A stretch of 64,000 bases of DNA from Escherichia phage vB_EcoP_PE006. Below are positions 7,710-50,895 of this stretch, piece by piece. Both the position numbers and the translations under genes were made by a program. The stretch is taken from sequence record OQ938541.1. One strand, given 5' to 3'. The notes under the pieces are model-generated. The model was given only the letters and a program-made list of their open reading frames with translations. It was not told the origin of the DNA and made no database searches. The stretch's first letter is position 1; each line of letters begins with the position of its first letter.

Positions 7710-7737
7710 GTTGTTGATAATGTAGAAGGAGTATAAA

Positions 7738-32268: not shown

Positions 32269-35200
32269 ATGGCTAACATTAAACCGTGGGAAGAAGCTTC
32301 CAAAGCTCCTGCGTATCTGAATGCCTCTCCAGAGCAGCAAGCTCAGATGAGAGAACAATATAAGGCAGCAGGTGGCTCTATTCCTGAGGAACAACCAGCA
32401 GCACAACCACAACAAGAAGAACGTGGTGTTATTGGTGAGTTTGCTCAAGGTGTGTCAAATGCTCTTCAATCTGGTGGTGCAAACATTGCAGCTAGTACTA
32501 CTAGAGGTATTGGTGGTTTGGTTGAGCTTGGAGAAAACCTAGCTGGAGCACAAACTAGTTATGGTAAGCGTATCCAAGAGAATGCTCAAAACCTCTTGAA
32601 AGAACGTATGGATAAGATTGAGGATGGGATTGGTAAAACTGCCGGTCAGTACGCTGGAGTGGCTGCCGATATCGGTTTGACAGTTGCTAGCCCATTAACT
32701 GCCGCTGCTGTCATCGCAGGTCGTGAGACAGGTCGTGCATATGCAGACCAAACCCCTGAAGAGGGAGAAGATAAGTCTGTTCTGGATGCAGCTCTAGTCG
32801 GTGGTGCTAACTATGCAGCTATGAGAATCCTTCCGGGTGCTGTTGGTACAGCTGAGTCCACACTTGGACGTATTGGTCAGAACGTTGCTTCTAACGCAGT
32901 GGCTGGTGCTAAAGGTGGTGCTCTTATTGGTGCTGCTGAAGCTCAGAACAAATATGGTGATGACAATGATCTAGCTAAGACATTAGAAGGTGTTATCACA
33001 GAAGGGGCTATGGGTGCTGCATTCGGTGGTGCAGTTGGTGGTGTTCATGGTTTGATTAGTCGTCCAGGTTCTGCTGTCTTTAAGAATACTCCAGAGTATG
33101 CAAAGACTGACATTGCTGCTGATGATGAACTGATTCGTAGTGCTAAGAATATTGATGAATTGAAAGAAGCTTATTCTAAAGCTGAAACCGCTAATGCTGC
33201 TTCTGCTCTGAATCTTCTAGATGAGAATGGATTCCGTATTACAGATGCTGTTGCTGTAGATTCTCCTGCTGCTCAGCGTATTCTTAATACAGACCAAGCT
33301 CGTGCTGAGAAAGCTGCTTCTGCTCAGAAAGAACACTCTAACATTCCGGGCCTTAATCCTTTGGCTGCCCCTGCTAAGACTCGTGGTAAAGCTTTCGCTG
33401 ATAATGAGCACAACCAGAAACAGGCTGTTGCTATGAAAGATGCAATGGCTGACTACACCAAGGATAACACGAAAGCCCTTACAGATGTTCTAGACAACCT
33501 AGATCGTGAATTAACCTCTCTTAGAGCATCTGGACACTTCACCGGTAGTCCACTTGATGTTAAGAATCGCACACAAGCTGACCGTGATTTCATTGATGCT
33601 TACAAGACTTTCTACAACGAGGCAAATCGATTCAAAGCTCGTGATGGTGAAGACTTTAATAACTTTGTAGAGAAAGCTGCTGAGCTACAGAAGATGGCTG
33701 ATAACGTTTCTCCAGAGATGAAACAGGCTATTGATGGGTTAAAGAAACTGAAGGGTATGCCTGAAGGTTTTAATCCTATTCAAGATTCTTATACTCTGAA
33801 TAATATGGCTAAGTTCATGAGCAACCAAGACCGTGGTTGGACTTCCCTAACTGATGATGGCTTCCGTGAGGCTTCTTCTCCTAGTCTGGTTATGAACACC
33901 CTTGGTGCTGCTAAGTATGCTCTGAATCGCTTCTCTTCTCAGCGTGCTCGTTCTCAACGTGTCAAGCAACAAGAGTCTAACAGTGAAGCTATCCGCTCTC
34001 TGGCTCGTGGTGATTTGGAAGTTGCTCGTGCTAAGTCTACTGTTGATGAAGCTCGCGCTAAGATGGAAGAAGAACCAGTTGTTGATGACATTAATTTTAA
34101 GACGCAAAATGACGTAGAAACCGAACCGGTTCGGGAGCCTTCTTCTAGTACTGTGACGGAAGAAAATCTTCCTTCTTCTGCTCTTCAAGATTCCCCTCTT
34201 ACAGCTCGTGATTTAGTTGCGCAAAGACGTGCTATCCGTCAGGCTGAACAGCGTCGTGCTGAAGAAGAGGCAGCTGCTGCTCAAGAAGCTCCGATTGAAC
34301 AAGCTCCGAAAACTGAACCACTCCCTGCTCGTAACCCTTTAGAGGAACGTCGTGCGATGGAGCAGCAACGTGCTCAAGAAGAGGGCCAAAAGGCTGCATC
34401 AGAGGATGCATCTTCTGTTACTAAAGAATCCCTCTCTCACTACGCTGAAGATGGGATACTTTCTCAAGATTTAAATGGCAACATGGCTCTTCGCCTAAAC
34501 CAGTTCACCCCGGCTGAGCAACAATTTTTGCGTAACCATAATTTGGTTGACTCAAATGATATGGTCAAAGCTAGTTCTCTAAGACAAGCTGATCCATTAC
34601 CTGCTAGTGCTCCTAAAGCTCCTAAGGAAGCTGTACAGGACGTTAAACCGGAAAGCGGTGTAGAGTTCCTAGCTTCTATGTCAAGCACTGCTCGTCAAGT
34701 TGCTAAAGATCGTGCAACACGTTTTGCTAAATCTTTATACTCTAAGGCTGCTAAAGCTAAAGCTACTGCTGAAAACTTCTTGGCTTACAAGGGAGATCCT
34801 TTGGAGTTGATGCGGCGTATTCGTCGGGAAGATAATGCTATCAACACTGAACGTCATGAAGAGATGGCTCGTAATCAGAGAGCTACTCAGAAAGGTATTG
34901 CTACTGCTAAGAACAACGCTGTACGATCCGAGTTTGCTGAATGGGTTAAAGAACGTGGTCTGCCAGAAGATATTGCTACTAAGGCATTACGTGCTGAAGA
35001 GAGTGGTTTAGGTGGGAACGTAACTAACTTGGAAAGCCTGAAACGCAGATCTGAAAGGTTGTATCAGAAGCAACGTGAGGCTGAGTTTGATAGATTATAT
35101 CAAGAAGCTCTGGAAGAAAACAAAGCTTTCGATAAGAAGGATGCTCCTAAACTGGTTGACCAGAAGAAAGAACTTCAGTCTGAGATTGATACTTTGATTG

Positions 35201-40514: not shown

Positions 40515-40806
40515 AATGCATCTCTTTATAAATGGTTTCCGTGTTCTTCTTCCAGCTAGATAAACCGGTAAGAACTCTCTGGGCAACTTCATCAGCTGCC
40601 TTGCTTCTTTCAATCTCTAATTCTTGCTGGTGCTTCTCTTTGTCCAGATTACTACTGTCTGTTTGATATTCGTTAAACTTCATACCACCAAAGAATACAA
40701 GAGCTGAGAAAACGATAAACCCTAAGTTATCACTTAACGTGTTTTGCATGTTGTCTCCAACGAAAAAAGCCACCCGAAGGTGGCTAAGCTATAACAAGGA
40801 GAGTTA

Positions 40807-41553
40807 TCAGAATGGGCTGTCGTTGTCATCTTCATAAGTAGAAGCAGGCTCTTTATCAATCGTAGGGATTGAAGGAGTAGCTTCTTTCTGCTCTGTTTCA
40901 GAAGCACGAGTAATTTCACGACCAGCCAGAGGCATGTTCTTAGCGTCGTTAGCTTGAGTAAGCAGGTTGCGCTGGAACGGGAACATCAGTTGATAGGATG
41001 CTACGTTCTCATCGGTTTCAGCATACGGTTCGAAGAATACCAGAGGACTACGAGCTTCACCAACTGCTGCACGATATTTGGTTGGGATTGGAGAAATGGT
41101 TTTGATGGAGTTTTTAACTTCACCAGCTTTATTAGTGTAAGAGTTAACCAGAATGTTGACAGGCTGACCTAACAGTACATCCTTAAACCAAGACAGATCA
41201 CCTTTCAGTGCTTGAATGCTTGGGTCAATCATCTTGCAGAGATCAAGGATACCAGAGTTCTTAGCTCGTGGGTTTACATCATAGCTCTTGAACTGGCAAG
41301 CAGGACGTGGTTCTAATGCCTTACCATCGGAATCTTTACCAGTAGCATCAACACCAATCAGCTCGAAAGCCAAATCCATACGGAAAGCTGGATTCTTAGG
41401 AGTTACTGCTTTGGTCTTCGGGTCAATCCAAGGGTCACGATTGTGAACACCCAAACCTACTACACGAACAATACGTGCTTCGTACTCACCATCAGGGATG
41501 ATGTCGTAGTTGGATTTACGGGAAGAGGTTGCGATAGTTGGAATCATAGACAT
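40807..41553 (-). CDS. ssb: single-stranded DNA-binding protein
   Basis: 248 aa with an acidic C-terminal tail ending ...YEDDNDSPF, like the protein-interaction tail of SSBs; sits in the replication module. Confidence 0.6.
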   Translation of the reverse strand: MSMIPTIATSSRKSNYDIIPDGEYEARIVRVVGLGVHNRDPWIDPKTKAVTPKNPAFRMDLAFELIGVDATGKDSDGKALEPRPACQFKSYDVNPRAKNSGILDLCKMIDPSIQALKGDLSWFKDVLLGQPVNILVNSYTNKAGEVKNSIKTISPIPTKYRAAVGEARSPLVFFEPYAETDENVASYQLMFPFQRNLLTQANDAKNMPLAGREITRASETEQKEATPSIPTIDKEPASTYEDDNDSPF

Positions 41554-41612
41554 ATTTTAATTTCCTTATTTAATTTGAAAGATTGTTGCTCTCTTTGAGC
41601 GGTTATGTATAG

Positions 41613-41621
41613 TATACATTA
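41613..41621 (-). promoter_or_regulatory. TAATGTATA promoter-like motif (minus-strand sense) upstream of ssb
   Basis: Reverse complement of tatacatta, ~59 nt upstream of the SSB ATG, inside the palindrome ATGTATAGTATACAT. Confidence 0.4.
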
Positions 41622-41759
41622 CGCTTATACCGATAAGAGTACTATGTAATATAAGTATCTTTGGTAGTAGATATAACACACTAGTAATGTATATATTGTA
41701 TAGCTGATAAAGTTATTGCAGGCTTGTATATTGGGCAATTCACAGAATCCCTTGCAAGT

Positions 41760-41860
41760 ACCGAAGGGCAGGAGCCACCTGCGAGATAAAAATAGAGAAT
41801 TAAGGAATCCTTGATTTAGGTTGTAGGGACTCCTAGGGACTTTGATTCTCTATTTAAAAG
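41760..41860. repeat. structured intergenic element: 11-bp inverted repeat AAATAGAGAAT / ATTCTCTATTT flanking tandem TAGGGACT repeats and a small palindrome
   Basis: Read directly in the 394-bp intergenic region upstream of ssb. Confidence 0.5.
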
Positions 41861-41947
41861 AATATTAATTACTTACTTAAAACCAATTCAAAAAGAGAAT
41901 AGCTAAAAGAACTATTCCTAGTAAAGCTAAGAAGTAAATGATATAAG

Positions 41948-42175
41948 TTACCATTCAAGTAAACCTTTAAAGTTAGACTGTTCTACTATCCTCTGATAAC
42001 GAAGATTAGAATCAGCTTGTTTCTTTAACATCTCATTATATTGGTCTCTGATAGAGTCTTTATAAACTACAGGTTCTTTAAATAATGAGATCTTCTTTTC
42101 TTCAGAGTTAGATAGTACATCCGTCACAAATGAAATCCCCACTAAGTGATTCTTGTAACAAGCGACTCTGTTCAT
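41948..42175 (-). CDS. hypothetical protein (75 aa)
   Basis: ORF only; overlaps the next ORF in another frame, so one of the pair may be spurious. Confidence 0.3.
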   Translation of the reverse strand: MNRVACYKNHLVGISFVTDVLSNSEEKKISLFKEPVVYKDSIRDQYNEMLKKQADSNLRYQRIVEQSNFKGLLEW

Positions 42176-50880: not shown

Positions 50881-50895
50881 CCGTGAATTTCCTTA

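Follow-up and report, generated by a model that had tools for sequence, protein, structure and literature searches.

The 64,000-nucleotide (nt) stretch of DNA analysed here over its whole length (the window) comes from Escherichia phage vB_EcoP_PE006 (sequence record OQ938541.1) and is, judged by its sequence, a phiEco32-like coliphage. Our subject is the gap at 41554-41947, between gene 40 (homologous to phi32_40) and the final gene of the operon upstream of it, in a part of the genome where the neighbouring annotated genes are on the minus strand throughout. Two back-to-back promoters of the type used by host RNA polymerase when it is loaded with the phage sigma factor gp36 are found in this gap, namely the published promoter P40 and a divergent promoter predicted here, and the latter is followed by a series of hairpins (Table 1). 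The gp36 gene itself (phi32_36) lies approximately 1 kb downstream of the gene 40 homolog. Our data suggest that the divergent promoter probably makes a non-coding RNA of approximately 157 nt (41700 to approximately 41857). An earlier sequence-only reading had described the gap as a structured intergenic region. Most of it is indeed intergenic, although its last 71 bases belong to a small phi32_41-like gene, and the palindromes, inverted repeat, tandem copies, and two TAATGTATA motifs listed in that reading were all found within one or two bases of where it had placed them.

The 1.6 kb around the region matches 97 phage records, every one of them a phiEco32-like coliphage (subfamily Gordonclarkvirinae), and identity to phiEco32 itself is 95% over that distance. 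Conservation was assessed in a main alignment of 20 sequences, and segment identities are means versus the window across its 19 relatives. Fold energies were compared among 26 sequences, and column identities of the P3-H3 core described below were calculated from 16 distinct sequences. Five more distant contigs, with gp40 71-81% identical, were included. A metagenome scan contributed just six close relatives, and a pattern scan of IMG/VR returned mostly chance matches. Chance levels for palindromes and inverted repeats were taken from the shuffled window.

Table 1. Features of the gene 40 upstream region in the window; transcript starts and RNA domains are predictions.
Feature	Position	Strand	Remarks
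Gene 40 homolog (phi32_40), 248 amino acids	40807..41553	-	served by P40
Gene 40 5' untranslated region (UTR), predicted	41554..41606	-	start inferred from the published 6-8 bp rule (PMC8948821)
15-nt palindrome ATGTATAGTATACAT	41605..41619		spans -13 to +2 of P40
P40 -10 element TAATGTATA	41621..41613	-	exact match; predicted start site 41606
Divergent promoter -35 block TTGGTAGTAGATAT	41661..41674	+	identical to P68 -35 block, in the same register
Divergent promoter -10 element TAATGTATA	41685..41693	+	exact match; predicted start A at 41700
H1 hairpin AUAGCU-GAUAA-AGUUAU	41700..41716	+	begins at predicted +1
Domain 2, variable module	41717..41767	+	between H1 and P3; at least 4 non-homologous versions in relatives
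P3 hairpin GCAGG-AGCCA-CCUGC	41768..41782	+	stem invariant, loop centre variable
H3 long hairpin, perfect 11-nt arms	41790..41855		encloses AAGGAATCCTT and tandem TAGGGACT
Inverted repeat AAATAGAGAAT / ATTCTCTATTT	41790-41800 and 41845-41855		arms of H3
Palindrome AAGGAATCCTT	41802-41812		inside H3
Tandem TAGGGACT	41824-41831 and 41834-41841		inside H3
Hydrophobic open reading frame, 25 amino acids (MVTYIIYFLALLGIVLLAILFLNWF)	41877..41954	-	homolog of phi32_41; phrog_24970, E 7e-8

A predicted gp36 promoter diverging from P40

Promoters of Escherichia coli RNA polymerase with gp36 share a single consensus element, tAATGTAtA, and initiation occurs 6-8 bp downstream of this motif (PMC8948821). 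Six gp36 promoters are described in phiEco32 and its relatives: P6, P13, P26, P40, P58, and P68 (PMC4331800; PMC8948821 Table S3; PMC4281155). We found that these correspond one-to-one to motifs in the window, at 7718+, 15194+, 32222+, 41621-, 47878-, and 52934-. Because of this mapping, the minus-strand TAATGTATA, noted as promoter-like in the sequence-only reading, which had not recognised it, is P40, the published middle promoter placed upstream of gene 40 (PMC4331800; PMC8948821 Table S3). The window contains five exact copies of TAATGTATA; four are published promoters, and the remaining one is the plus-strand copy at 41685. With up to one mismatch allowed, there are 19 copies versus 19.8 expected, which is chance level.

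The plus-strand copy is part of a complete predicted promoter. Its core, AATGTA, occupies -14 to -9, and it is preceded by the 14-mer TTGGTAGTAGATAT, which has just two exact copies in the 64 kb. The other copy (52958..52945, minus strand) lies upstream of the P68 -10 element AAATGTATA, and both copies stand at the same distance from an (A/T)AATGTATA -10 element. In P68 numbering, position -37 of the divergent promoter (41663) is G and position -34 (41666) is A. These are the bases read by the C-terminal domain of gp36 in the P68 open complex solved by cryo-electron microscopy, and mutation of either -37G or -34A of P68 abolishes transcription (PMC12276001). The same pairing of P68 and divergent-promoter -35 blocks recurs in all five other complete genomes examined, and both promoters are conserved in every relative examined. 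They differ in setting: P68 heads a protein-coding operon on the minus strand, whereas the divergent promoter is predicted to fire in the opposite direction, has no open reading frame (ORF) behind it, and is not among the six listed. It carries the -10 and -35 elements of gp36 promoters and heads no gene of its own.

Conservation of this promoter exceeds that of its surroundings. Both TAATGTATATA and TGGTAGTA are fixed across 20 relatives despite variable flanks, and the 63-bp spacer that separates the two promoters has a mean identity of about 72%. Among 31 related sequences, the -10 motif and the -35 core are kept as the flanks diverge; the -10 element is altered in one metagenome contig (L064) and in four distant relatives. 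A TGGTAGT block and an AATG core persist even in the five distant contigs, where the spacing is one base shorter. Neither this conservation nor the match of four of the five exact TAATGTATA copies to published promoters is attributable to chance. The divergent promoter is absent from the six-promoter lists of later papers (PMC4331800; PMC8948821; PMC4281155), the primary phiEco32 reports (Savalia 2008; Pavlova 2012) lying outside the scope of this comparison. Neither the promoter nor its predicted RNA appears in the record annotations of relatives or in Rfam.

Hairpins downstream of the divergent promoter

No conserved plus-strand ORF was found downstream of the divergent promoter, in agreement with the sequence-only reading, and relatives annotate only minus-strand genes here. 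The plus-strand ORFs are at most 32 amino acids long and are located in domain 2, a module without homology from phage to phage; in the gap as a whole there are only ORFs of at most 37 amino acids, and these are disrupted or non-homologous in relatives. A search of Rfam gave no gathering-score match in the window and only noise (E >= 2) for 41550-41960, and ARAGORN found no transfer RNA or transfer-messenger RNA in the window.

What follows the promoter instead is a hairpin, H1, that starts exactly 7 nt past the TAATGTATA motif in all lineages. In the window, H1 folds on the plus strand only (-2.9 versus 0 kcal/mol). We found eight sequence variants of H1, each anchored at +1, comprising four mutually unrelated stems (ATAGCT, AGAGTTA, ACATC, and ATCTCT). 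Compensatory variants are AUAGCU/AGCUAU, AUAGUU/AACUAU, and AUAGA/UCUAU; the stems unrelated to that of the window pair as AGAGUUA/UAACUCU, ACAUC/GAUGU, and AUCUCU/AGAGGU. Since an anchored hairpin of at least 5 bp has a background chance of 0.051 per window position, four independent stems at +1 are very unlikely to have arisen by chance. Furthermore, three of the eight variants form on the plus strand only because they need a G·U pair.

Between H1 and P3 lies domain 2, whose versions (the window compared to L002, L079, and L088) replace one another within constant borders, UUGCA at the left end and ACCG/GAAGGGC at the right. This exchange suggests modular recombination inside the predicted RNA gene. 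Compensatory changes in domain 2, amounting to two or three pairs, were found within version C (L086 versus L082) and version B (L002 versus ECBP2). Over the full length of the predicted RNA, the plus strand is the more stable one in 25 of 26 sequences, with mean energies of -44.5 versus -38.3 kcal/mol. Consensus folds calculated by RNAalifold show the same bias, at -39.1 (plus) versus -29.4 (minus) for version A and -48.5 versus -40.5 for version B. The strand asymmetry typical of a structured RNA, G·U on one strand and A·C on the other, was found here.

Other readings of the predicted RNA were considered and rejected. Mimicry of the host, or a decoy resembling repeats of CRISPR (clustered regularly interspaced short palindromic repeats), received no blastn match in 5,426 E. 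coli genomes, and P3 resembled type I-E or I-F repeats only superficially in our own comparison. Targets in trans inside the phage were represented by complementarities of 9-11 nt only, with chance E-values; an 11-nt complementarity in gene 26 (32368-32378) was dropped, being approximately 100 nt into the coding sequence, and the 15-nt identity found at 50895-50909 falls on an AT-rich gene junction.

A nearly invariant P3-H3 core

The 3' part of the predicted RNA is better conserved than the neighbouring coding sequence. Mean identity is 98% for H3 and 97.7% for the 23-nt segment running from the H3 end through P3, compared to 92% for the gene 40 5' UTR, 90% for the gene 40 coding sequence, 82.5% for domain 2 with H1, and 72.5% for the inter-promoter spacer. 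The P3-H3 core (approximately 90 nt, 41768-41855) has a mean column identity of 96%, with 81 of 97 columns invariant, even where gp40 is 71% identical. The interiors of the hairpins are fixed as well, except for the centre of AAGG(N3-4)CCUU and for single-base deletions that hit both GGGACU repeats together. Such conservation suggests that the sequence itself is recognised, either by a protein or because both strands are constrained, and that more than a stem is being kept. P3 shows one compensatory pair, A-U to U-A, in L082.

H3 differs between its two strands. On the plus strand it forms a 16-bp stem with two G·U pairs, to which an A-to-G change in XT32 adds a third, whereas on the minus strand only the perfect 11-bp arms pair, followed by UUUUUAU. 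Its fold energy is -23.5 kcal/mol on the plus strand versus -18.2 on the minus strand (z about -3.4 for both), and the plus strand is more stable in all 26 sequences. Inverted repeats of 11 bp with a loop of 20-60 nt number 3 in the window versus 0.8 expected, the shuffle maximum being 4. AAAAA and UAUUU border H3 on its two sides, and the minus-strand U-tract that follows it, AUUCUCUAUUUUUAUC, is invariant in relatives. H3 lies 20 nt past the stop codon that ends the upstream operon. The minus-strand UUUUUAU and this location make H3 a plausible terminator of the upstream operon. Its minus-strand stem is AT-rich with an interior of 43 nt, and a consensus terminator scan makes no call here.

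Proposed transcription of the region

We propose that, in the middle phase of infection, gp36 polymerase stimulated by gp79 would fire from both promoters. P40 would yield the leftward messenger RNA (mRNA) of gene 40, which encodes an SSB-like protein, while the divergent promoter would be transcribed rightward from approximately 41700, opposite to all neighbouring genes. The resulting RNA would consist, in order, of H1, domain 2 (the module swapped between phages), P3, and H3. H1 may protect its 5' end. H3 might work both ways, as a terminator-like element for the upstream operon on the minus strand and as a hairpin that stops or stabilises the RNA on the plus strand. Termination at H3 may be only partial; Rho could act on the untranslated, C-rich antisense RNA beyond H3 (GC skew of the plus strand -0.25), and exonucleases could trim the transcript back to H3.

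Several observations weigh against this proposal. The start site at 41700 and the 3' end near 41857 are predictions. The plus-strand U-tract after H3 is weak (UAUUUAAAA), which means that the RNA may read through or depend on Rho or processing. P3 and H3 are so nearly invariant that covariation has little to act on, and their covariation amounts to one compensatory pair, with 36 of 500 shuffles reaching the observed score. Domain 2 does not consistently favour either strand, and the better fold in L088 is that of the minus strand. In one relative, L064 (metagenome contig ERZ1034915 NODE-75), the -10 element reads TAATATATA, a G-to-A change at -11, a base contacted by gp36, in an otherwise intact element; four distant relatives have TAATGAATA in place of the -10 motif. 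Because the sequences are related, a tally such as 25 of 26 cannot be read as that many independent events. The unlisted status of the divergent promoter derives from the lists in later papers. Lastly, an antisense role alone leaves the invariant core sequence unexplained.

If the RNA is made, its role might be an antisense one, and we put this forward tentatively. It would pair with the complementary 3' end or the read-through of the upstream operon mRNA, and the P3-H3 core would additionally be bound by a protein. This geometry, in which the RNA is complementary to the 3' end and read-through of upstream operon transcripts, resembles that of OOP of phage lambda. OOP is a short antisense transcript that has its own promoter and runs against the direction of the pR operon; it adjoins replication functions and was once proposed to be a replication primer. 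Both would be short non-coding transcripts, running from promoter to hairpin between operon segments and against the surrounding genes, with complementarity to the 3' end of the upstream message. However, there is no sequence or structural similarity between them. The predicted phage RNA would be approximately twice as long, would start at a phage-sigma promoter, and, in most relatives, would overlap only the 3' UTR and terminator and not the coding 3' end. Antisense pairing would not account for the invariant core either.

A less probable role is that the approximately 157-nt RNA is an essential RNA of the phiEco32 group and not a simple antisense by-product. It would then either define the replication origin, as a primer or R-loop RNA, or bind protein and thereby act on the machinery of replication or transcription. 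In that case it would represent a new family of phage RNA with a phage-sigma promoter dedicated to it.

Alternative explanations

Of the three options raised in the sequence-only reading (replication origin, operator, or small non-coding RNA), comparative evidence favours the non-coding RNA, because a conserved and complete gp36-type promoter is followed by no ORF and by covarying hairpins that need plus-strand G·U pairs. The operator found no support, and the evidence on the origin points neither way.

An origin of replication activated or primed by transcription is unlikely, in our estimate, yet it accounts for several features of the locus. Here the P68-type promoter would fire into the P3-H3 core, the transcript or an R-loop would open or prime AT-rich DNA, and the core with its tandem TAGGGACT copies would provide binding sites for replisome or initiator proteins. 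The primary origin of T7 consists of promoters followed by an AT-rich stretch, and oriF and oriG of T4 consist of a middle promoter followed by an unwinding element. The locus likewise has a phage-specific, middle-class promoter without an obvious gene product behind it, AT-rich DNA further on, and a place in the replication gene region, where it adjoins the SSB-like gene within a block that includes the DNA polymerase phi32_53. Its single-copy core is kept better than coding sequence, as would be expected of an essential cis site. The DNA immediately beyond H3 (41861-41947) has a GC content of 23%. The plus strand is locally G-rich and purine-rich, with a GC skew of +0.2 versus -0.18 to -0.25 in the flanks, and this would favour a stable RNA-DNA hybrid. 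In contrast to the T7 and T4 origins, approximately 155 nt of structured and conserved sequence separates the promoter from the AT-rich stretch, and that stretch codes for a protein in many relatives, while others have unrelated sequence in its place. There is no iteron array. Detection of an origin by cumulative GC skew was uninformative, since the skew follows the direction of transcription and turns near 38 kb rather than here. The covariation and G·U pairs of H1 point to a selected, folded RNA, which is compatible with a primer RNA but not specific to one. Our literature search found no origin mapping for phiEco32-like phages.

We consider it improbable that there is no RNA gene at all, with H3 being the intrinsic terminator of the upstream operon and the plus-strand motif belonging to an upstream control region of P40, for example, as a second docking site where gp36 holoenzyme tunes P40 or blocks read-through by occupying the DNA. 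This is consistent with the invariant AUUCUCUAUUUUUAUC tract, with the position of H3 just past the upstream operon, and with the -35 regions of both promoters being only approximately 20 bp apart, so that two polymerases would interact. A bidirectional intrinsic terminator would similarly be expected between AAAAA and TTT, as H3 is, and could stop convergent transcripts both ways. However, loop changes should be tolerated in a terminator, whereas H3 is almost invariant over its 43-nt interior, as is P3, a separate hairpin. The AT-rich minus-strand stem and long interior of H3, its short plus-strand U-tract, and the silence of the consensus scan are also atypical of an intrinsic terminator, and a hairpin at the plus-strand +1 that survives four unrelated stem sequences would be left unexplained, as would the G·U pairs confined to the plus strand.

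An operator, in which ATGTATAGTATACAT, AAGGAATCCTT, and CCTAGG would bind a dimeric phage DNA-binding protein that regulates gene 40, is very improbable: short palindromes are several, and AAGGA(N1-2)TCCTT keeps its arms as its centre varies, but ATGTATAGTATACAT occurs at chance frequency without keeping its arm spacing or symmetry in relatives, the remaining palindromes fall inside H3, at a distance of 180-230 bp from the P40 start, and there fixed arms and a variable centre fit a hairpin loop equally well, and no candidate repressor gene was identified.

Returning to the non-coding RNA, P40 is the already known part of this locus, and the new parts are most likely a seventh gp36 promoter and a phage-encoded non-coding RNA, both predicted; the invariant core has a modest chance of marking something of greater importance. 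phiEco32 serves as a model of phage reprogramming of host RNA polymerase, via gp36 and gp79, and its transcription map is regarded as complete with six gp36 promoters. A strictly conserved seventh promoter without a protein product would, if confirmed, add a non-coding output to this transcription programme. It would also provide a second natural template with a P68-type -35 element, along with a sequence of approximately 90 nt that is kept more faithfully than neighbouring genes. We know of no origin or regulatory RNA for the phiEco32 group, and a core that served as a replication origin or protein-binding RNA would fill this gap. Such a core would likewise be worth avoiding, or exploiting, in the engineering of these phages, which are therapeutic candidates. 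If the RNA were merely an antisense by-product, the outcome would be a modest correction of the annotation.

Gene 40, P40, and the 15-nt palindrome

The product of gene 40, given the label ssb by the sequence-only reading, is SSB-like in that it has an OB fold and an acidic C-terminal tail ending in Phe. Membership in a curated SSB family was not borne out, as Pfam gave no match and PHROG 6599 is of unknown function; no sequence match was found in the PDB. The P40 TAATGTATA element is without variation in the 20 aligned sequences. In the gene 40 5' UTR, which includes a Shine-Dalgarno sequence (AAGGAAA), the block AACCGCTCAAAGAGAGCAACAATC (41583-41606, minus strand) is also kept in the 20 aligned sequences, with one loop base differing in two phages. 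It contains a small 4-bp hairpin, GCTC-AAAGA-GAGC (41600..41588), at +7 to +19. The block is possibly an mRNA stabiliser or a translational operator for the SSB-like protein.

Although the motifs behind the term 'structured' are real, the palindrome at P40 is statistically ordinary. Perfect palindromes whose arms measure 7 nt or more number 9 in the window versus 8.1 +/- 2.7 in shuffles. In relatives, the arm spacing of ATGTATAGTATACAT shifts (1, 3, or 5 nt) or its symmetry is lost. The palindrome is probably a by-product of the -10 core TGTATA adjoining the conserved transcript start TATACA, and an operator reading finds no support here. A second divergent promoter within the palindrome (TTATGTATA, 41603-41611, plus strand) was ruled out, being unconserved; it reads TTTGTATAC in the SU7 group.

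Downstream of gene 40, approximately 20 nt past its stop codon, there is a canonical intrinsic terminator (40768-40785, minus strand) with the sequence AGCCACC-TTCG-GGTGGCT followed by TTTTTT, and gene 40 may therefore be monocistronic.

Other features of the locus and its relatives

The upstream operon ends with the 25-amino-acid ORF, whose ATG overlaps the stop codon of the preceding ORF (ATGgTAA). Its homolog phi32_41 is annotated in phiEco32 with 35 amino acids, the copy in the window being shortened by a 24-nt deletion; it is absent in ECBP2, Paul, Bas87, XT32, and TH34. 

The -35 regions of the gp36 promoters are not uniform. The late promoters P13 (15164-15202, plus strand) and P26 (32192-32230, plus strand) share TAAGACCTA at -38 to -30, which is unlike TTGGTAGTAGATAT, and P40 and P58 share a third pattern, TAC-TAG-A. 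Given these three patterns, gp36 promoters may form -35 classes that match their timing.

One lineage (L002 at approximately 2270-2400; L015, L023, L064, L067, L068, L072, and L074) has an insertion of approximately 130 nt between the two promoters. The insertion carries a second CTACTACC copy and a hairpin, CUACC-UUCC-GGUAG, and this lineage has a non-homologous RNA domain 2. Two records annotate a coding sequence across both promoters, 4E8 g037c (L011 417-611, minus strand) and 101114UKE3_039 (L020 417-578, minus strand); these are probably over-annotations because the frames are unconserved among relatives.

Both promoters and the RNA element are missing from more distant gp40 homologs, those 64-69% identical (L007-L009 and L083-L085). 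These share instead a different conserved, repeat-rich block, GCATATAGCTTAGCTTAGCTTTGATATGCTAGCTTTGCTAG, immediately upstream of gene 40.

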